Shown: positions 27,794 to 43,734, counted from the stretch's first letter. The stretch: DNA of 64,000 nt from Halorutilales archaeon Cl-col2-1 (GCA_041891055.1 CP169074.1:1088001-1152000), one strand, 5' to 3'. The notes: generated by a model not told the origin, from the sequence alone. Numbers and translations are program-made.

Positions 27794-29041
27794 ATGGAGT
27801 ACACCGACTACGTCGACGAGGGTTATAGCCCCGACGACTCCGAACTCGTCTGCCGTTATCACGTCGAGCCACACGAAGGTGTGGAGTTCAGACGCGTCGC
27901 GGGTGGGGTAGCGGCGGAGTCGTCTGTGGGTACGTGGGATCCCGACCTCAAGACTATGACAGAAGGAATCGAGGACCTCGCGGCGACGGTCTTCGAACTC
28001 GACGCCGACGCGAACGAGATAGGCGTCGCCTACACGACAGAGGTCTTCGAACCGTCGAGCCTGCCTCAGCTACTCTCGTCGATAACCGGAAACATATTCG
28101 GTCTCGAGGAGATACGACATCTCAGACTCGAAGACGTCGACTTCTCCGAGAGTTTCGTCGAGAGCTTCGAGGGTCCCGAACTCGGTGTAGAAGAGATCAA
28201 GTCGAGAGTCGGTGCCGACGACAGACCCCTGTGTGGTACGATAGTCAAGCCGAAGCTCGGTCTCCGGTCAGACGAACACGCCGATGTCGCCTACGAAGCC
28301 TGGGTTGGAGGTCTCGACCTCGTGAAGGACGACGAGAACCTCACCGACATGGAGTTCAACCCGTTCTACGAAAGGGTCGAGGAGACACTCGAACGTAAAC
28401 GCGAAGCCGAGACCGAGACGGGCGACTCGAAGCTTTACTTCCCCAACATAACCGCACCCGTCTCGGAGATGAAGAGACGTGCCGACGCAGTCGTCGAAAA
28501 CGGCGGAAGCTACGTCATGATCGACATACTCACAGCGGGCTGGTCGGCTCTCCAGGAAATGAGGGAGTACCTCGACGACGGTATCGGAATACACGCCCAC
28601 CGCGCCCAGCACGCCGCTTACACACGTCTGCCGTACCACGGTATCTCGATGCTCTCGGTAGCCAAGTTCGCACGTCTCGCGGGGGTCGACAACCTCCACG
28701 CAGGAGCCGTCCTCGGGAAGATGGAGGCGGACGCCGACGAGATAAGAAGAATTTACGACTTTCTCAGAAACGACTGGTACGGTACTGAGAACGTCATACC
28801 CGTCGCGTCGGGAGGTCTCCATCCCGGAGTCGTCCCCGGTGTCGTCGAAGAGTTAGGTACCGACACCGTAGTACAGGCGGGAGGCGGCGTCCACGCACAT
28901 CCCGGCGGCACGAGATCCGGAGCGAGGGCTCTTAGGGACGCAGTCGACGCCGTAGCCGAGGGGGTCACGCTCGACGATAAGGCGGAGGAGAGTCCCGAAC
29001 TTGCCGAGGCGCTCGGGAAATGGGGGAAGCAGAAGACGTAA
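27794..29041 (+). CDS. rbcL: Ribulose-1,5-bisphosphate carboxylase, form III
   Basis: AAESSVGT, GNIFG, KPKLG, GLDLVKDDE, HAHRA, LHAG..LGKM, ASGGLH, QAGGG: all catalytic residues present. Confidence 0.95.
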   Translation: MEYTDYVDEGYSPDDSELVCRYHVEPHEGVEFRRVAGGVAAESSVGTWDPDLKTMTEGIEDLAATVFELDADANEIGVAYTTEVFEPSSLPQLLSSITGNIFGLEEIRHLRLEDVDFSESFVESFEGPELGVEEIKSRVGADDRPLCGTIVKPKLGLRSDEHADVAYEAWVGGLDLVKDDENLTDMEFNPFYERVEETLERKREAETETGDSKLYFPNITAPVSEMKRRADAVVENGGSYVMIDILTAGWSALQEMREYLDDGIGIHAHRAQHAAYTRLPYHGISMLSVAKFARLAGVDNLHAGAVLGKMEADADEIRRIYDFLRNDWYGTENVIPVASGGLHPGVVPGVVEELGTDTVVQAGGGVHAHPGGTRSGARALRDAVDAVAEGVTLDDKAEESPELAEALGKWGKQKT

Positions 29042-29072
29042 GGAAAAGGCGGGTCTACTCTGAGGAACCAAG

Positions 29073-30569
29073 ATGGAGTTCGAAGTAAAGGAGGTCGACC
29101 TCGGAACGCGGTCACCCACGGTCATACTCAACGAGGCGGACGCCGAGGAGCTCGGGGTTCACGCGATGGATCGTCTCCAGATACGTCAGTACGAGGGAGG
29201 ACACCAGACTACGGGTATAGTCGAGGTCACGAGCGGTCTCGTAGAGAAGGGAACTCTGGGAGTAAGCAGACGTCTCAGCTACCTGTCGGGGAATGAGACG
29301 GTCGAAGTCACACTCTCACCGAAGCCTAGCTCTGTCAAGTACATAAAGAAAAAGCTCGAAGACATAGAGCTCGACTCGGCGGAGATCACATCTGTGATAC
29401 GTGACATAGACGAGAACCGACTCAACGATGTCGAGCTCGCGGCGTATGTCTGTGGAACCTTCACAAACGGGATGTCGATAGAGGAAACCATACATCTCAC
29501 CGAGGCTATGACTCAGACCGGCAAGAAGATAGACTGGGACGACGACGTCATCGCCGACAAACATTCGATAGGGGGTGTCTCAGGAAACCGCGTGACTCCC
29601 ATAATTGTACCCGTAGTCGCCGCCGCAGGGGTCAAGATCCCGAAGAACTCATCGCGCGCGATTACCTCGCCCTCGGGAACCGCGGACACAGTCGAGGTTC
29701 TGTGTGACGTCGAGTTCGGTCTCGAAGAGATAAAGGAGATAGTCAAGGAGACCAACGGCTGTATGGTCTGGGGAGGATCAGTCAACCTCTCGCCCGTCGA
29801 CGACAAGATCATACGTGTCGAGAATCCTCTCTCGATAGATCCGCCGGGACAGGTCATAGCCTCGGTTCTCTCGAAGAAGGAGAGTTCGGGGTCGAACCAC
29901 GTCGTTATAGACATACCCTATGGCGAGGGGGCGAAGGTCGAGAGTCTCGAAGGAGCAAGGGAGCTTGCCGACGACTTCAAGAGGGTTGGTAAGCATCTCA
30001 ACATAAAGCTCGACTGTACGATTACGGGAGGCTCACAGCCCATAGGACGCGGGATTGGTCCCGTGTTAGAGGCACGCGACGTCCTCAAGGTTCTCGAAGG
30101 AAAGGGTCCTGAGGATCTCAGAATAAAGAGCCTACGTATCGCCGACATACTCTTCGAGATGTCAGACACCGACGCCGACGCGCGCGAGATACTCGACTCG
30201 GGAAGAGCACTTGAGAAGTTCCGTGAGATAGTCGAGGCTCAAAACGGCGACCCCGAGGTCACTGTCGACGACCTGAGACCCGCGTCACGTAAAGCTGTCG
30301 TGAGCGCAGACAGGTCGGGGATAGTCAAACACATCGACAACAGTCTCATAAGTCAGATAGGCAGACGTGCGGGCGCACCGAAAGACAAGAGAGCCGGGAT
30401 CTATCTCGACAAGAAGGTCGGCGCGAGGGTCGACGAGGGTGACAGGCTGTTTACTATATACGCCGAGAAGGACGAGAAGCTCGAACACGCAAAGCATCTC
30501 GAAGAGACGTCTGAGTCGGAGGCTTTCAGGATCAGGAACAGGGAAGAAGCCCTCGTCGAGAGGGTCTAA
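29073..30569 (+). CDS. deoA: AMP phosphorylase
   Basis: N-terminal extra domain, DKHSIGGV.GNR, SSRAITSPSGTAD, SKK, GRGIGP, AGAP.D..AG; next to rbcL. Confidence 0.93.
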   Translation: MEFEVKEVDLGTRSPTVILNEADAEELGVHAMDRLQIRQYEGGHQTTGIVEVTSGLVEKGTLGVSRRLSYLSGNETVEVTLSPKPSSVKYIKKKLEDIELDSAEITSVIRDIDENRLNDVELAAYVCGTFTNGMSIEETIHLTEAMTQTGKKIDWDDDVIADKHSIGGVSGNRVTPIIVPVVAAAGVKIPKNSSRAITSPSGTADTVEVLCDVEFGLEEIKEIVKETNGCMVWGGSVNLSPVDDKIIRVENPLSIDPPGQVIASVLSKKESSGSNHVVIDIPYGEGAKVESLEGARELADDFKRVGKHLNIKLDCTITGGSQPIGRGIGPVLEARDVLKVLEGKGPEDLRIKSLRIADILFEMSDTDADAREILDSGRALEKFREIVEAQNGDPEVTVDDLRPASRKAVVSADRSGIVKHIDNSLISQIGRRAGAPKDKRAGIYLDKKVGARVDEGDRLFTIYAEKDEKLEHAKHLEETSESEAFRIRNREEALVERV

Positions 30570-36937: not shown

Positions 36938-36950
36938 ACGGCTAACTACC

Positions 36951-36975
36951 TTTCTGTTTCAGCTTCGTATTTTTC
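36951..36975 (+). terminator. T-rich tract after carB (probable archaeal terminator)
   Basis: TTTCTGTTTC...TATTTTTC directly downstream of the carB stop. Confidence 0.45.
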
Positions 36976-36985
36976 GTGTCTTCGT

Positions 36986-37000
36986 ACCCAACTGGTTTGG
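36986..37000 (+). promoter_or_regulatory. Bat UAS-like site ACCCAACTGGTTTGG upstream of the htr-opsin operon
   Basis: 12/13 defined positions match the Halobacterium bop-regulon UAS ACCCNACTAGTTNGG; followed by TATA-like GATATATA at 37010. Confidence 0.7.
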
Positions 37001-37102
37001 CTGTGTCTTGATATATATCTGTGACGTATATAAGCCGATGCCAGCACCAGGTTCGAGACAGAGTTCTGAGCCGAGAAGGGATTCAAGGGGGGACACGAGG
37101 TA

Positions 37103-38728
37103 ATGCGAGGGTCTGAGTCTGTTCTTCCGAGTAGGCTACGGGAGAGCTACACCGCGAAGCTAACCGCGGTTCTCTTCACAGCCGTAGTGACCACGGTGGT
37201 CTTCGGTGTAGTCCTCCTCAGACAGGTCGAAGAGGGAGTCTCAGACACTACTTCGGGTGTCGTGGGTCTGATACTCCTAAACGTCGTCAACCTGGGTCTC
37301 ATAGGATCGACAATAGGGAGTAACACGGCTATATCACTCGAAGTTCTCCAGAGGAAGTCGTCGAGAATGGGTCGGGGAGACCTCGACGTCGACCTCGAAA
37401 CCGACAGACAGGACGAGATGGGAGACCTGTATGACTCGTTCTCCAAGATGAGGGACTCGCTGAGACAGAAGATAGACGAGGCGGAGCGCGAAAGGGAGAG
37501 GGCAGAGAAACAGAAGAGGATAGCCGAGGAGAGACAGGAGGAAGCCGAGGAACTCAACAGACGTCTCGCGGAACAGGCTGAGAGGTACAAGGACGTCATG
37601 AGGGACGCCGCAGACGGAGACCTCACGAGACGTGTCGACGCCGAGACACGTAACGACGCGATGAGGGAGATAGGAGAGGCTTTCAACAGCATGATGGACG
37701 GCTTAGAGGAAACTGTGGCTAAAGTAAAGGGATTCTCGGACGAGGTCTCCGACTCGACACGTGAGGTCGAGAGAGGCGCGAACGAGATACGTGAGTCGAG
37801 CGAGCAGATAAACAGTTACATACGTGAGATATCACGCGACACCGACGAACAGGACGACAAGCTACAGAACATATCGACCGAGATGAGCGACCTGTCGGCG
37901 ACTATAGAGGAGGTCGCGTCGTCGGCTGACGAGCTAGCGGGGACTTCACAGAGGATGGCTGATCTGGGTCAGGAGGGAAGAGACGCAGCCGAGATAGCCA
38001 TAGACGAGATCAACCAGGTCGAGTCTGAGACCGAGAAGACGGTCGAGGAGATAGTCAAGCTCGACGAACAGATGAAGGAGATAGAGGAGATAGTCGATGT
38101 CATCACCGACATAGCTGAGGAGACCAATCTACTCGCTCTCAACGCGAGCATAGAGGCGGCGAGGGCGGGAGAGGAAGGAGACGGCTTCGCTGTCGTCGCC
38201 GATCAGATAAAGGAGCTCGCCGAGGAGACAAAGAAGTCGGCGTCCGAGATAGAAGAGGTCATATCCGACGTACAGGATCAGACCGAGAGCACAGTGGACG
38301 ACATACGTGAGACGAGCGACAGGATAACCAAGGGTGTCGAGACAGTCGAGGACACCGTCGAATCCCTCGAAGAGATAGTCGGATACGTCGAGGAGACCAA
38401 CTCGGGAGTCCAGGAGATCCGTGACGTGACCGAGAGCCAGGCTAACTCAACACAGGAGGTCGTGTCGGTCACCGACGAGGTCTCCGAGCTCAGCAGAAAC
38501 ACAGCCGACGAGGCGAAGAAAGTCACCGACGAAGCCGAGAGCCAGACCGAGATAGTCAAGTCAGTCTCGGAGAGAGCCGAGAGACTCGCCGATGGAGCCG
38601 ACGACCTCAACGAACTCCTTGAGGGCTTCGATGTCAAATCTAAGTCTGACGTCAACGGCAATGTAACGGCGCGAGGAGTAGAGAGGTCGGATTTAGCACA
38701 CGCAGACGGAAAGGGAGGTGAGAGGTAG
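37103..38728 (+). CDS. htr2: Phototaxis transducer, HtrII-like (2 TM, 2 HAMP, MCP signalling domain)
   Basis: LPSRLRESYTAK and VNLGL..SRMGRGDLDV.LET.R.DE.GDLY..F..MR closely resemble Natronomonas HtrII; IAEETNLLALNASIEAARAGE.G.GFAVVA hairpin. Confidence 0.93.
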   Translation: MRGSESVLPSRLRESYTAKLTAVLFTAVVTTVVFGVVLLRQVEEGVSDTTSGVVGLILLNVVNLGLIGSTIGSNTAISLEVLQRKSSRMGRGDLDVDLETDRQDEMGDLYDSFSKMRDSLRQKIDEAERERERAEKQKRIAEERQEEAEELNRRLAEQAERYKDVMRDAADGDLTRRVDAETRNDAMREIGEAFNSMMDGLEETVAKVKGFSDEVSDSTREVERGANEIRESSEQINSYIREISRDTDEQDDKLQNISTEMSDLSATIEEVASSADELAGTSQRMADLGQEGRDAAEIAIDEINQVESETEKTVEEIVKLDEQMKEIEEIVDVITDIAEETNLLALNASIEAARAGEEGDGFAVVADQIKELAEETKKSASEIEEVISDVQDQTESTVDDIRETSDRITKGVETVEDTVESLEEIVGYVEETNSGVQEIRDVTESQANSTQEVVSVTDEVSELSRNTADEAKKVTDEAESQTEIVKSVSERAERLADGADDLNELLEGFDVKSKSDVNGNVTARGVERSDLAHADGKGGER

Positions 38729-39433
38729 ATGGTTGAGATAACCGACACGACGACATGGTTCTGGATAGGCGCGGTAGGTATGTTCGCGGGAATGGTAGTC
38801 TTCGTAGCCTCAGGTGTCAGGAGCGACGACGAGACGAGGAAGTACTACGGTGTCATAGCCGCGGTCGCCTTCATAGCGTCCGCAGCCTACGCTGCGATGG
38901 CTCTCGGTATAGGCTCGCTCGAGTCCGACGGAGTGACCGTATACCTCCCGAGGTACGCAGACTGGCTGATAACGACACCCCTACTCATACTTGACCTGGG
39001 TCTCCTCGCGGGTGTCAATAAGAAGACGTACGCGGCTCTGATAGGCTCAGACGTCGCGATGATAGGATCGGGAGTCGCGGCGTCGCTCTCGACCTCCTGG
39101 GTCAAGTACGTCTACTTCGGCGTGGGATCGGTGGCTTACGTGGTTCTCCTCTACCTACTCATGAGAACCCTCTCGGACGCCGCGAGGGGCAGAGGAGTCG
39201 CGTCTCTGTTCCAGAAGCTAAGGAACCTGACAGTAGTCCTGTGGTCGGTCTATCCCGTAGTCTGGCTGGTCGGACCCTACGGAACGGGTCTCTTAGAGCC
39301 CGCTACCGAGACTATCATAATACTCTATCTCGACCTCATAACCAAGGTCGGGTTCGGTTTCATACTCGTCAACAGCCACGACGTCCTGTCGTCGATACGT
39401 ACCCCCTCGACGGCGGACGTAGCCGAGACGTGA
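38729..39433 (+). CDS. Microbial rhodopsin, SRII-like/middle-rhodopsin-like, with D-T-D motif
   Basis: 7 TM; PRYADWLITTPLLILD (helix C), LRNLTVVLWSVYPVVW (helix F), YLDLITKVGFG with retinal Lys206; abuts the transducer stop. Confidence 0.95.
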   Translation: MVEITDTTTWFWIGAVGMFAGMVVFVASGVRSDDETRKYYGVIAAVAFIASAAYAAMALGIGSLESDGVTVYLPRYADWLITTPLLILDLGLLAGVNKKTYAALIGSDVAMIGSGVAASLSTSWVKYVYFGVGSVAYVVLLYLLMRTLSDAARGRGVASLFQKLRNLTVVLWSVYPVVWLVGPYGTGLLEPATETIIILYLDLITKVGFGFILVNSHDVLSSIRTPSTADVAET

Positions 39434-39439
39434 TCAGTC

Positions 39440-39646
39440 TCAGTTCCCTTCTACCTCAAAGATAACACCGAAGACGTGGTCGTTAGGACACGAGAGACGT
39501 CTTAGCTTTCCTCCTTGGCTTCGCCGTCCCCGGCTTTCCTCGTTCTCGTAGTCAGTCTCGAAGACCCCTTTTACCGTCGCGTCCCACGGGAGACCCATCT
39601 TGACATTGACACCGCATATGGGACACCGTATATCCCGAACAGGCAT
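39440..39646 (-). CDS. brz: Brz, bacteriorhodopsin-regulating CPxCG zinc-finger protein
   Basis: MP...I.CP.CG..VKMGLP..ATVK.V...C.NDH.F.V.FE matches Halobacterium Brz as recalled; divergent from brp as in the bop cluster. Confidence 0.85.
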   Translation of the reverse strand: MPVRDIRCPICGVNVKMGLPWDATVKGVFETDYENEESRGRRSQGGKLRRLSCPNDHVFGVIFEVEGN

Positions 39647-39695
39647 CGTTGGGAGACGATGGTAGACAAGTGCTTAAGCCTACTCCTTGTTGTAC

Positions 39696-39710
39696 ACCCC
39701 AACAGTTAGG
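39696..39710 (+). promoter_or_regulatory. Bat UAS-like site ACCCCAACAGTTAGG between brz and brp
   Basis: 11/13 match to ACCCNACTAGTTNGG; TATA-like TTTTAATA at 39716; brp ATG 36 nt after the site. Confidence 0.65.
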
Positions 39711-39746
39711 CCTCGTTTTAATAGTGTGACGGAGCCTATTCTAAGT

Positions 39747-40766
39747 ATGACGAGTTTTGGTCTCCGAAGACTACGGAGACGCGGACGGTCGAGTTCGTAC
39801 CTCACGAGGTCGAGGCTCGGTTTACTTTCACTGACGGTCGGCTTCGGTATCTTGGGTCTCGCGGGCATAGGAGTCTCACTGCGTCTCCAGTCTGCCGTCT
39901 ACCTGATAGGGATGGTGGCGATGAACCTCCCCCAGGGTGGCTACGAGAACTTACATAACCTCGACGGACGTGGCACGAGGTTCCAGATGGGATACATAGC
40001 CTCCTACGTACTCACCATAGCGGCTTTCACAGCCGTCTTCTTCTTCGACCCCGTCGTGGGACTGGGTCTCGGCGTCTTTGTCGCGATGGCTAAGGGAGGC
40101 TTCGGAGACCTCAGCGTCTTGGAGACCATCTACGGCGACCACATAAAGACAGATATCCAGAGATGGCTAGCTGCGGCGGTCAGAGGTGGTGTCGTGATGG
40201 TAGTTCCGATGGCTTTCCATCCCGAAGCTTTCTACGGTCTGAGCTCCGTGATGGTGAATATATTCGATCCCGGTGGTCTCACGAGACTCGGATACGGGAG
40301 CTTCGAGACCGCGAGCCGTGTCCTCGGGGCTGTTCTCTGTGCCATAACTGGGGTTTACCTGGTTCTGGGGTACATACGGTCAGACGCGACGGGGTCGTTC
40401 AGGTCTGACGCGGGCGAAATCTTCCTCCTAGTCGCCTACTTCGCAGTGACTCCCGTCGTGGTAGCCGTTGGTCTCTACTTCCCCCTGTGGTACTCGGCGA
40501 GACAGGTCGCCCGTATGAGGGCGGTCGACGACTCCGAGACGGAACGGGACGGCTTTGACGCCCCGGCTGTAGTAGTCTCACTCGTCGTGGCGAGCGTCGT
40601 GTTAGGTGGTCTCGTGTGGTCAGTCTCGCCACAGCCCCTCGGTGGTGCGAGAATCCTACCAGGACTCGTGGCTTTCTGGACGGTATTCGTGAGCATAATA
40701 GCACTTCCCCACGTAGTCATTGGAGGGCTTATAGACAGGTCGAGGGGGATATGGTACGTCCCATGA
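39747..40766 (+). CDS. brp: Brp/Blh family membrane protein (beta-carotene 15,15'-dioxygenase fold; iron-ligand His residues apparently replaced)
   Basis: Polytopic; NLP(Q)GG, AVRGG.VM.VP, YFPLW(Y)SAR(Q), IALPH; located between brz and bat; start trimmed to MTSFG. Confidence 0.82.
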   Translation: MTSFGLRRLRRRGRSSSYLTRSRLGLLSLTVGFGILGLAGIGVSLRLQSAVYLIGMVAMNLPQGGYENLHNLDGRGTRFQMGYIASYVLTIAAFTAVFFFDPVVGLGLGVFVAMAKGGFGDLSVLETIYGDHIKTDIQRWLAAAVRGGVVMVVPMAFHPEAFYGLSSVMVNIFDPGGLTRLGYGSFETASRVLGAVLCAITGVYLVLGYIRSDATGSFRSDAGEIFLLVAYFAVTPVVVAVGLYFPLWYSARQVARMRAVDDSETERDGFDAPAVVVSLVVASVVLGGLVWSVSPQPLGGARILPGLVAFWTVFVSIIALPHVVIGGLIDRSRGIWYVP

Positions 40767-40841: not shown

Positions 40842-42872
40842 ATGACGGATCAAGGAAGGATACTCTACGCAGGCGGTGAGATAGACGGTATCAGCCCTGA
40901 GTCGGTAGACGAGAGTCTCGACCGGCTCGAGGTCGTACACGAATCCGACTTCGTCACGGCTCTCGAATCCGCCAGGGAAACCGACGTCAGAGGCGTGATC
41001 GCCTCCCACCGGACTAACGGCTTCAGAGGCGTCGACCTACTTGAGTCGATGCGTCAGGAGGGGCTGGGAATCCCCGTAGCCGTGGTAGTTCGGGAGGAGG
41101 AGGCAGGCGAAGTGGCACGCAGAGCAGTCGAAGCCGACGCCACGGCTTTGGTGCCAGCAGGCGATGACGACGCTCTCGAAGCCTTAGCTGACGCGATCGA
41201 GAGAAACATGAGCACCGAGGATGGACGTAGACGTGAAGAAGACAGACGTATGCCAATATCCGACCTGCCCTTCGAGGACGAGAGACGTCTCAAGGAACGT
41301 GTCCTTGACGAGGCACCCATAGGAATCACGGTCTCGAACGCCGACGACCCCGATAACCCCATAATCTACCTCAACAAGTCGTTCGAGAGTCTGACTGGGT
41401 ACTCGGCCGAGGAGGTAGTGGGTGCGAACCACAGGTTTCTACAGGGAAGCGAGACCGACACCGAGAAGGTCGAGGAGCTCGGAAGAGGTGTCTCAGAGGG
41501 GCGTGACACACGGGTTACACTGCGTAACTACACCCGGGACGGTGACCTCTTCTGGAACCAGGTAGACGTAAGCCCTATATCCGACTCAGAGAACGAGACG
41601 TCTTATTACGTGGGGTTCCAGATGGACGTCACCGAGCGCGAGAGATTCAGACACGAGCTTGAGGAGGAGCGCGAGGCTTTCGACCGTCTCATAGACCGGA
41701 TGAACAGTCTCATCAACGACATCACGAGATGTCTTGTACGTGCCGAGAGCCGCGAGGAGGTCGAGGAGTCAGTCGTCGAAAAGCTCGGCGAGGAGTACGA
41801 TCAGGCTTGGATCGGAAGGTACAGCCCCACGGACGGCGAGGTGACTGTAGACGAGACCTCGATACGAGACAGAGAGGAACGACAGAATAGAATCAGCGTC
41901 GGAGAGGAAGACTCCGAGCGAGTAGTGAGTGACGTAGTCGAGAGACACGAGACAAGTGTCGTCGAGGGCGACGAAGCCGAGTCCCTCCGTCGTCGTATAC
42001 TGGACGGGTCAGTCGACGACTCCAAGTCGGGGTCTTCTTTCTGTGTCACCGTCCCCGTGACCTACCAGTCGACGACATACGGTGTGATTGGTGTCTGGGG
42101 AGACGGTGAGAGACTCGACACCAGGGAGCCTGGGCTTCTCGCGTCGGTCGCCAGAAGCGTTGGGGCATCGATCAACGACGTCTTGACTAAGAGGACTATG
42201 TCGACCGACTCGGTGGTGCGCCTGGGTATTCGGATAGAGAACGACGGATCGCCTCTCGTGGAAGTCGCCGACGAGGTTGGAGGGAGTCTCGAATACGAGG
42301 GTGCCGTGACACAGGGCGGCGGTATAGCTATACTCGTGAGTACGTCAGCCGACCCAGGGGAAGCCGTCGAAGCTGCGGGACAGAACAGCGGCGTTGTAGA
42401 CGCCGAGGTACTCGTCTCAGACGAAGAAGGAACTGTTGTACAGATACGTGTCGATCGAATCGGTCTCGTGAGTGAGGTCTCCGAGCACGGTGGCCGTCTG
42501 AGGTCGATGGAGGTGACACCCAACGGCGTCGAGGCGGAGCTGGACGTCGGAAACGAGAGAGAAGCACGCCGTCTCCTCGACCGTCTGAAACAGACCTACT
42601 CAGGGTCGGAAGCTGACGTCAGTCTCGCAACCTACAGAACAGTAGAGGAAGCATCACAGACGACACAAGGCTTCAGAAACGAGGTAAGAGACCGTCTGAC
42701 ACAGCGTCAGATGACAGCCCTCCAGAAGGCGTATACGGGAGGCTTCTTCGACTGGCCCAGGCGTGTCGAGGGCGAGAGGCTCGCCGAGTCGATGGACATA
42801 GTTCCGTCGACCTACCACCAGCATCTACGTACCGCGGAGAGAAAGCTCATAGAGGCTTTCCTAAACGGCTGA
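40842..42872 (+). CDS. bat: Bacterio-opsin activator (receiver-like + LOV/PAS + GAF + HTH_10)
   Basis: DNPIIYLN..F..LTGY..EEVVGANHRFLQG LOV, GAF, and LT.RQ..AL..AY..GFFDWPR...HLR.AERK HTH. Confidence 0.92.
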   Translation: MTDQGRILYAGGEIDGISPESVDESLDRLEVVHESDFVTALESARETDVRGVIASHRTNGFRGVDLLESMRQEGLGIPVAVVVREEEAGEVARRAVEADATALVPAGDDDALEALADAIERNMSTEDGRRREEDRRMPISDLPFEDERRLKERVLDEAPIGITVSNADDPDNPIIYLNKSFESLTGYSAEEVVGANHRFLQGSETDTEKVEELGRGVSEGRDTRVTLRNYTRDGDLFWNQVDVSPISDSENETSYYVGFQMDVTERERFRHELEEEREAFDRLIDRMNSLINDITRCLVRAESREEVEESVVEKLGEEYDQAWIGRYSPTDGEVTVDETSIRDREERQNRISVGEEDSERVVSDVVERHETSVVEGDEAESLRRRILDGSVDDSKSGSSFCVTVPVTYQSTTYGVIGVWGDGERLDTREPGLLASVARSVGASINDVLTKRTMSTDSVVRLGIRIENDGSPLVEVADEVGGSLEYEGAVTQGGGIAILVSTSADPGEAVEAAGQNSGVVDAEVLVSDEEGTVVQIRVDRIGLVSEVSEHGGRLRSMEVTPNGVEAELDVGNEREARRLLDRLKQTYSGSEADVSLATYRTVEEASQTTQGFRNEVRDRLTQRQMTALQKAYTGGFFDWPRRVEGERLAESMDIVPSTYHQHLRTAERKLIEAFLNG

Positions 42873-42915: not shown

Positions 42916-43734
42916 ATGTCTTACCTCGCCTATGTGACTGTGTCAGTAGTGGGGGTCTCAGGTGTGGTGGCTATCGTAGCGTGGCACAGACGGGGACTGA
43001 GAAGGCTGTCCGACGTCCTCGGTGTAGGTGTCCTGAGCCTGATAGCCGTGGGTTACACATTCGGATGGGACGCGTATCTCATATACAGGGATGTATGGTG
43101 GTACGGCGACGGTGTCGTAAGCTTCCGCATCGTAGGAGTCCCCGCAGGGGAGATACTCTTCTTCGTAGCCCAGACTTCGCTGACATCGTTCTGGCTGTAC
43201 AGTCTCAAGCCCGACTTCGGCAGGAGTCTCGGAGAGACCGAGCCCGATAGACACCGCGACGGATTCGGGCTCGACCCGGCTCTCGTTACTGTCGTTCTAG
43301 GAGGCGTATCAGGTCTCCTTCTCGTCTTCGTGGCTCCCCAGAGGTACTACTACCTGGGTCAGATACTCGTCTGGGGAGCCCCGATGGTGTTCTTCCTCTG
43401 GTACGTCGGCAGTGAGATACTCCGTGAAAACATACGTCTCGTCGTAGCCGGAGTGGCTGTTCCGACCGTATACCTCTGGGGAGTCGACAGAGCCGCTATA
43501 CAGAGGGGTCTCTGGACCATCTCGGAGGAACACTCGACCGGAATAGGACTTCTAGGTCTACCCTTGGAGGAGATGGTGTTCTTCGGAGTGACTAACAGCC
43601 TCGTCGTCTTCGGCTTAGTCCTATATCTCTGGGTGGCTGAGCGCGCTAGAGACGGAGAAAAAGAAGAGGACTATCTGACTGGCATGAGACGCCTGATACT
43701 CGGGGTCAGAGACGGGGACGGGAACACGAGATAG
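42916..43734 (+). CDS. crtY: Lycopene beta-cyclase (fused CrtYc/Yd type)
   Basis: Two repeats: WD.YLI...VW.Y/GVP.GEILFF and D..AI..G.W.I/GLPLEEMVFF. Confidence 0.9.
   Translation: MSYLAYVTVSVVGVSGVVAIVAWHRRGLRRLSDVLGVGVLSLIAVGYTFGWDAYLIYRDVWWYGDGVVSFRIVGVPAGEILFFVAQTSLTSFWLYSLKPDFGRSLGETEPDRHRDGFGLDPALVTVVLGGVSGLLLVFVAPQRYYYLGQILVWGAPMVFFLWYVGSEILRENIRLVVAGVAVPTVYLWGVDRAAIQRGLWTISEEHSTGIGLLGLPLEEMVFFGVTNSLVVFGLVLYLWVAERARDGEKEEDYLTGMRRLILGVRDGDGNTR

Follow-up and report, generated by a model that had tools for sequence, protein, structure and literature searches.

The window analysed here is a 64,000-nucleotide stretch of the Halorutilales archaeon Cl-col2-1 genome (GCA_041891055.1, CP169074.1:1088001-1152000), in which a gene for a phototaxis transducer (Htr) of the HtrII type is followed directly by a gene for an opsin. 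The opsin matches Pfam Bac_rhodopsin over residues 7-217 (E 8.7e-64), which rules out a chance open reading frame (ORF), and has R75 and D202 with the counterion D78 as well as the retinal lysine K206. An earlier note on this DNA, made from the sequence alone, had likened the opsin to sensory rhodopsin II (SRII) while crediting it with the helix-C aspartate-threonine-aspartate motif (D-T-D) of the proton pump bacteriorhodopsin (BR). All of the residues that it named (D78, T82, D89, D108, M111, F130, G133, Y175, E194, Y200 and T205) were read back by script, and the isoleucine, tyrosine and glutamate that it had placed at BR T46, BR E194 and NpSRII T189 were seen as I43, Y184 and E190. The mosaic of a D-T-D motif with the SRII signalling and contact residues Y175, Y200, T205, G133 and F130 is real and rare. 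The features of the locus are collected in Table 1.

Table 1. Features of the opsin locus, with positions counted from the first nucleotide of the window.
Feature	Position	Strand	Product	Details
Intergenic region, presumed promoter of a two-gene operon (inferred)	36941..37102	+		TATA-like A/T-rich stretches some 65-90 nt ahead of the transducer ATG
HtrII-type phototaxis transducer	37103..38728	+	541 aa	Two transmembrane (TM) helices, very short outer loop, HAMP, methyl-accepting chemotaxis protein (MCP) domain
Gene junction	38712..38731	+		GGAGGTGA; Shine-Dalgarno-like stretch upstream; Htr stop TAG, then immediately opsin ATG
Opsin	38729..39433	+	234 aa	Helix-C motif D78-T82-D89; retinal Lys206; SRII-type residues Y175/Y200/T205/G133/F130/P183; pump-type residues D89/M111/L213/S216
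Brz-like zinc-finger ORF (CPxC ... CPxxH)	39440..39646	-	68 aa	In the opsin-brp gap
Brp/Blh beta-carotene 15,15'-dioxygenase (retinal-making)	39687..40766	+		Pfam BCD E 2.7e-59
Bat-like activator	40842..42872	+		LOV-like PAS, GAF, BAT domain, HTH_10
Lycopene cyclase (beta-carotene, retinal precursor)	42916..43734	+		Pfam Lycopene_cyc E 7.3e-08; NCBIfam TIGR03462 E 3.1e-33

The note's claim that a full HtrII gene with the asparagine of a VNLGL motif abuts the opsin was borne out. HAMP (E 2e-16, two stretches) and MCPsignal (E 2.3e-45) are recognised by Pfam in the 541-residue product, the asparagine is N63, and the stop codon TAG stands directly before the opsin ATG. Residues 6-144 of the transducer match the NpHtrII chain 2f95_B (E 2.3e-32), and its identity to 13 HtrII proteins from named genomes is 41-48%. 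Gene order, transducer then opsin, is that of the NpSRII/HtrII system (PDB 1H2S, 5JJE), as is a short transducer that lacks an outer domain (541 aa, against 538 aa in a Natronomonas locus). Related Htr-opsin pairs were adjacent and on one strand in all 50 cases, with a spacing of -8 to +3 nt in 45 of them. Haloarcula HtrM is described, in passages of PMC6450946, as being without the methyl-accepting domain and the CheA/CheW tip; since the signalling domain is present in the window transducer, it is not of the HtrM kind.

Equivalences between the opsin and NpSRII were taken from HMMER alignments to PDB chains, ungapped to about residue 150 and then with one two-residue gap. At 42% sequence identity, the opsin shares with NpSRII the equivalents of Asp75 (D78), Thr79 (T82), Phe127 (F130), Gly130 (G133), Tyr174 (Y175), Tyr199 (Y200) and Thr204 (T205). 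It differs in having D89 at Phe86, M111 at Val108, E190 at Thr189, and leucine and serine in place of two alanines at positions 213 and 216; E194 stands at Asp193. Searches of solved structures with phmmer gave a tie between deltarhodopsin 4FBZ (4.9e-53) and NpSRII (6.2e-53). The AlphaFold2 model of the opsin has seven helices and a mean predicted local distance difference test score (pLDDT) of 92.4, and its structure matches at ranks 1-7 are NpSRII entries (template modelling score 0.93-0.96, normalised to target), followed by deltarhodopsin in eighth place and BR from rank 16 at about 0.90, a small margin.

We then compared individual positions across 65 BR-type and 126 SRII-type rows. D89 and L213 are each found in 100% of the BR-type and 0% of the SRII-type rows, M111 in 100% and 3%, and S216 in 91% and 2%; T195, D34, A27 and F211 of the query are likewise in the BR state. 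Tyr200 shows the reverse pattern (0% of BR-type, 100% of SRII-type rows), and the positions in the SRII state also include F11, A15, P74, F130, G133, Y137, P183, T205 and N215. Set against the BR-type pumps (BR, archaerhodopsins and deltarhodopsin, the last 46% identical over the structural alignment), the opsin has in common with them D-T-D, methionine at BR 118 and glutamate at BR 204, together with leucine and serine at BR 223 and 226; at 130, 133, 200 and 205, however, the pumps have Trp, Ser, Val and Ala where the window opsin has Phe, Gly, Tyr and Thr. L213 and S216 correspond to BR Leu223 and Ser226, helix G residues that lie next to Asp96. By alignment, the predicted cytoplasmic donor pocket is largely pump-like, and the predicted retinal pocket and transducer face are sensor-like. 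Not all of the residues offered by the note as diagnostic discriminate between the two types: all are present, but the Y175 position is tyrosine in 121 of 121 rows (the query and its 120 best relatives), and D108 and E194 are frequent in the DTY-type sensory group of the same rows too. A chimera of pump and sensor genes, or gene conversion, was considered and rejected, the pump-like and SRII-like positions being interleaved and the N- and C-terminal halves placing alike in trees.

The rarity of this combination was examined in several collections. A scan of genome contigs matched 603 stretches, of which 571 were confirmed; the best 80, from named genomes and with a top identity of 54%, were taken as loci, the window's own genome and its 96%-identical relative not being among them. 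Their 84 opsins comprise 35 with DTY and 15 with DTF, each of these 50 with an Htr gene directly upstream, and 30 with DTD, none of which has an Htr; the remainder (two TSA, one DTL and one DTE) are also without one. Asp at the donor site was thus found in 0 of 50 Htr-linked opsins, and relative to the 80 sampled loci the window is the sole case of DTD with Htr. In a search of 5.8 billion clusters the top match was P0001, 96% identical and from a metagenome-assembled genome (MAG) labelled 'Halobacteria archaeon'; the next was 52% identical. Helix-C motifs in the query and its 120 best matches were DTY in 44, DTD in 37, DTF in 32, QGY in six and QAY in two. Tyr200 together with Thr205 occurs among the 37 DTD rows in the query and P0001 only, the other 35 having Val, Ile or Met at 200 and Ala at 205. 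Nine residues, 195 among them, distinguish P0001 from the query; I43, D89, L213, S216, Y200 and T205 are the same in both.

When 1.84 billion cluster representatives were scanned without a profile, 1319 matched at E <=0.001, and DTD with Tyr200 and Thr205 was not found among the best 150 that were examined (top identity 47%). A tblastn search of a plasmid collection gave eight uninformative records with identities of 42% or less, and the literature searched yielded no account of a haloarchaeal D-T-D rhodopsin linked to an Htr. A carboxylate at the donor site is not wholly unique in the sensory clade, since the SRI-like representative P0161 has Glu there, with Tyr200, Leu213 and Ser216; its best solved match is 9WXR, a Haloarcula taiwanensis SRI-HtrI entry (E 6.3e-36). 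We also observed a clade within the sensory rhodopsins in which the counterion Asp is replaced by Gln (QGY, QAY) and Tyr200 is kept (P0042, P0062, P0068, P0074, P0082, P0087, P0095, P0115 and P0124).

Phylogenetic trees place the window opsin and P0001 together on the sensory side. With FastTree (205 rows) the remaining 134 sensory-type rows form the sister group of this query pair. With IQ-TREE (77 rows, halorhodopsin outgroup) support is 96/92 for the sensory clade with the pair and 98/94 for its other 52 rows on their own, and in a wider tree of 99 rows, 49 diverse cluster representatives included, the corresponding values are 98/96 and 91/95. The N-half and C-half alignments gave the same placement when used separately, and the pair stayed in the sensory clade (98) when nine pump-like columns were removed. 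In the 205-, 77- and 99-row trees the sister group of the pair comprises all the other sampled sensory rhodopsins, and its membership in the transducer-linked lineage appears robust. The note had left open that an already characterised D-T-D sensory clade might hold the opsin; none was found in the trees or the literature searched. The 99-row tree probably includes an SRI-like branch, through P0161, named SRI proteins not being among its rows, and P0170 and P0159 have NpSRII as their best match. A published reconstruction, as given in parts of PMC9117797, has D-T-Y in the ancestor of SRI and SRII and D-T-D in the archaeal rhodopsin ancestor; the query lineage is of direct relevance to the SRI/SRII node. 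Two D-T-L opsins without Htr (L052, 3621..4409, which adjoins CrtY and Brp, and P0144) were also noted; D-T-L opsins shift between a place by the sensory clade (FastTree and C-half tree) and the BR-type side (IQ-TREE).

These placements bear on whether the opsin could instead be a BR-type pump, or a cation transporter like middle rhodopsin, lying beside the transducer gene of another receptor. Such a protein would account for the D-T-D motif and the phmmer tie, and a tree with the pair on the BR side was not rejected, as described below. However, the stop and start codons abut, the same gene order accompanies a sensory-type opsin in 50 of 50 relatives, and Tyr200 belongs to the SRII-type rows. 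A precedent is the Haloquadratum walsbyi middle rhodopsin (HwMR), which we take PDB entries 9JWS and 8XHW to represent and whose locus entry (L033, 5971..6717) is labelled DTD_WSVT. It is reported as a light-driven magnesium transporter, and its gene adjoins CrtY, Brp and the BR-I gene. Passages of PMC12078690 give it the BR aspartate pair and an SRII-type threonine before the lysine, as in the window opsin. The note had likened the two mosaics, and D-T-D with the SRII-type threonine is indeed shared, but kinship was not upheld and we rejected it: at window positions 130, 133 and 200 HwMR carries Trp, Ser and Val, and it has no Htr and groups with the BR-type proteins in both the 77-row tree (where a DTL opsin also falls in that clade) and the 99-row tree. 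We regard a pump or transporter that merely neighbours a foreign transducer gene as highly improbable.

The predicted contact surface between the two products resembles that of the NpSRII-HtrII complex. Transducer Q41, S51 and N63 fall at NpHtrII Glu43, Ser62 and Asn74, assuming that the PDB chain index runs 3 behind (N63 aligns with chain index 71), so that the serine and asparagine are kept and the glutamate is replaced by glutamine. According to passages of PMC3274258, Glu43, Ser62 and Asn74 of NpHtrII hydrogen-bond to Thr189 and Tyr199 of SRII. In a set of 22 short transducers from named genomes plus that of the window, 23 in all, serine occupies position 51 throughout and position 63 is Asn in nine, Ser in nine and Gly in five; the pairing of opsin Glu190 with Htr Gln41 was found again in two Halonotius pairs. 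A model of the opsin with Htr residues 1-125 scored 0.72, against 0.00 for the best control; 58 of 80 solved complexes attained that mark, compared with 2 of 110 mismatched pairs. Its three runs have at least 78% of contacts in common, with partner pLDDT of at least 71, and join opsin helices F/G to Htr TM1/TM2. Since the NpSRII-HtrII complex is already solved and the score may derive from that known structure, we take the model as a sign of likeness, not of binding. An engineered parallel exists in BR A215T/P200T/V210Y, which signals through HtrII (Sudo and Spudich 2006, via passages of PMC3274258). That protein too combines the donor Asp with the Thr and Tyr that enable HtrII signalling; the window opsin differs in being natural, in being SRII-like over most of its length, and in having Glu rather than Thr at the third position.

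We consider it very probable that the opsin is an Htr-coupled sensor. That the abutting genes encode an SRII/HtrII-type receptor pair for phototaxis whose opsin has a pump-like reprotonation path is a fuller claim, towards which we lean. In such a receptor, light would isomerise the retinal and the Schiff base proton would pass to D78. The change would travel along helices F and G, reach helix 2 of the transducer and go on to HAMP and the Che kinase, with Tyr175 and Thr205 as the relay pair and the Tyr200 contact facing Asn63 on transducer helix 2. D89, with the pump-type neighbours L213 and S216 retained, would reprotonate the Schiff base, and M decay may for that reason be faster than in classical SRII. 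The fast cycling or pump/sensor switch suggested by the note would likewise be a prediction from sequence. A blue-green receptor is expected, on our assumption that two of the three colour-tuning residues of SRII are kept. Opsin not bound to Htr could move protons outward: passages of PMC3274258 state that SRII without HtrII pumps protons and that HtrII binding stops the pumping, and they see slow kinetics as what chiefly separates sensor from pump.

Whether D89 is a working donor that speeds the cycle seems to us an evenly balanced question. Several results weigh against the pump-like reprotonation path or against the deep placement of the pair. Ile43 occupies the position of BR Thr46, the partner of the donor, where Thr is found in 65 of 65 BR-type rows, Leu in 98% of SRII-type rows, and Ile in none of either set (0/65 and 0/126). 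Tyr184 replaces BR Glu194, a glutamate in 98% of BR-type rows, so that the extracellular proton-release pair of the pump, Glu194/Glu204, is incomplete, although E194 (BR Glu204) is kept. Conservation of D89 is thinly sampled, since only two sequences of the mosaic type, the query and P0001, were met in the searches. Phe86Asp alone in NpSRII reportedly does not confer BR-like kinetics. Removal of the nine pump-like columns turns the base of the clade of sensory rhodopsins into a four-way fork, and approximately unbiased (AU) tests reject neither a tree that holds the pair with the BR-type clade (p 0.112) nor one in which its sister is the NpSRII-like subclade (p 0.123). A quick tree of 46 transducers sets the window Htr on a long branch beside the short NpHtrII-like transducers (99), not at the base; forcing it to be basal cost 2.33 log-likelihood units (AU p 0.276). 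Because the AU tests leave nearby placements open, ancestral retention and reversal are indistinguishable for D89, as for L213 and S216.

The main rival builds on the first of these points: with the Thr46 partner lost, D89 could be functionally silent, either protonated at all times or poorly connected, and a leftover or product of chance reversal that does nothing in the photocycle of an ordinary slow SRII-type repellent receptor. The replacement of Glu194 by Tyr184 fits this, as do the SRII-type residues of the retinal pocket and relay (F130, G133, P183, Y200 and T205) and the seven NpSRII entries that head the list of solved folds; P0161, with its Glu, indicates that the donor position can vary within sensors. 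A silent residue would, however, not be expected to keep company with L213 and S216, also of pump type and nearly absent from SRII-type rows, nor to be kept with both of them in P0001 despite nine residue differences, and no Htr-linked opsin of the named genomes has Asp there. We judge a silent D89 to be rather unlikely, and keep to a sensor with a pump-like reprotonation path in what follows.

The sensory operon lies in a pump-type neighbourhood, with Brz-like, Brp, Bat-like and lycopene cyclase genes. The Brz-like ORF matches NCBIfam NF041795 over 59 of 60 profile positions (E 2.9e-19, 69.2 bits, against a curated cut-off of 100 bits). No counterpart was found by phmmer beside 80 related opsin loci, and a zinc-finger pattern gave 16 candidates there, none alike. 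The Brp ORF exceeds the cut-off of TIGR03753 (E 4.1e-57); as listed it begins with TTG, and a start at the ATG 20 codons downstream, at 39747, is likelier. In the Bat-like protein, Pfam recognises BAT (E 1.2e-25), HTH_10 (E 5e-21) and PAS_9 (E 3.7e-17), and its PAS domain is matched by blue-light LOV families (YtvA family, E 6e-43). The LOV motif reads GANHRFLQG, where G(R/H)NCRFLQG is found in seven of the 11 Bat proteins that adjoin pump genes; the cysteine of the latter motif would be the flavin-adduct residue.

Flanking Bat, Brp and CrtY genes are a feature of BR-type pumps, and together with the Brz-like ORF they set the operon apart from that of NpSRII. A full-length Bat relative (E 1e-80 to 1e-92) was present in 11 of 30 pump-type loci and 0 of 50 Htr-linked ones, and Brp or CrtY in 24 of 30 and 4 of 50. 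Retinal-synthesis genes by a sensory operon are not unique to the window, since four Htr-SRII operons of Natrialbaceae/Halorussus (L008, L009, L027 and L028) have CrtY and/or Brp directly upstream (Brp only in L028), without Bat. In Halobacterium, according to PMC2253796 and PMC3184054, brz lies in the bop-brp intergenic region and Brz and Bat together induce bop. Because of its Brz-like, Brp, Bat and lycopene cyclase neighbours, the window operon is probably switched on with retinal synthesis, as bacterio-opsin is in Halobacterium.

Such a neighbourhood would also suit a two-purpose protein, the host's main D-T-D opsin, which would pump protons as an energy source while free and direct swimming while bound to Htr, the balance being set by the relative amounts of the two products. 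The capacity of transducer-free SRI and SRII to pump, given in parts of PMC9117797 and PMC3274258, points the same way. Translational coupling of the two genes, on the other hand, favours 1:1 production, the proton-release pair is incomplete, and a separate pump may lie elsewhere in the genome, our analysis having covered the window. We think this double role quite improbable, and retain the receptor pair with a pump-like reprotonation path as our reading.

The remainder of the window is ordinary chromosome with a GC content of about 58%. A type III RuBisCO gene followed by an AMP-phosphorylase-like gene (27794..30569, + strand) was noted; the RuBisCO is 94% identical to that of the MAG carrying P0001, with Nanohaloarchaea next at 68% and then MSBL1 (named relatives 60-68%). 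CarB is 80-82% identical to 'Halobacteria archaeon' proteins (unnamed or MAG) and next to those of methanogens (63%), and none of its best 120 matches comes from a classical haloarchaeal genus. By these comparisons the host looks like a deep-branching haloarchaeon of the class Halobacteria. The RuBisCO, the AMP-phosphorylase-like gene and the GC content agree with descriptions of the order Halorutilales, the one described organism with such traits being Halorutilus (type III RuBisCO with AMP phosphorylase, a small genome, about 59% GC), although none of the matches bore that name.

By its sequence, the opsin seems to be a naturally occurring intermediate between pump and sensor. Passages of PMC10519204 and PMC9117797 describe the classical sensory rhodopsins as having an aromatic Phe or Tyr at the BR Asp96 donor site, from which D89 departs, and attribute the slowness of haloarchaeal sensory rhodopsins to that replacement. 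A natural Htr-coupled opsin that keeps the aspartate and its neighbours breaks the Phe/Tyr rule, and is a natural counterpart of the engineered BR that signals through HtrII. A bolder reading, which we hold to be improbable, is that the pair survives from an early stage of the passage from pump to sensor, in which the ancestor of every haloarchaeal sensory rhodopsin had a transducer and the Tyr/Thr relay while it was a working D-T-D pump, and that in this streamlined, deep-branching host the opsin still does both, pumping while free and steering while bound. If true, the ancestral sensory motif would shift from D-T-Y to D-T-D, and loss of the donor would have come after transducer coupling, not before. 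Should the opsin cycle fast while signalling, it would be a possible template for fast light-controlled chemoreceptor chimeras. The pair may offer an experimental way into two long-standing problems: whether signalling requires a slow photocycle, and in what order the steps from pump to sensor were taken.

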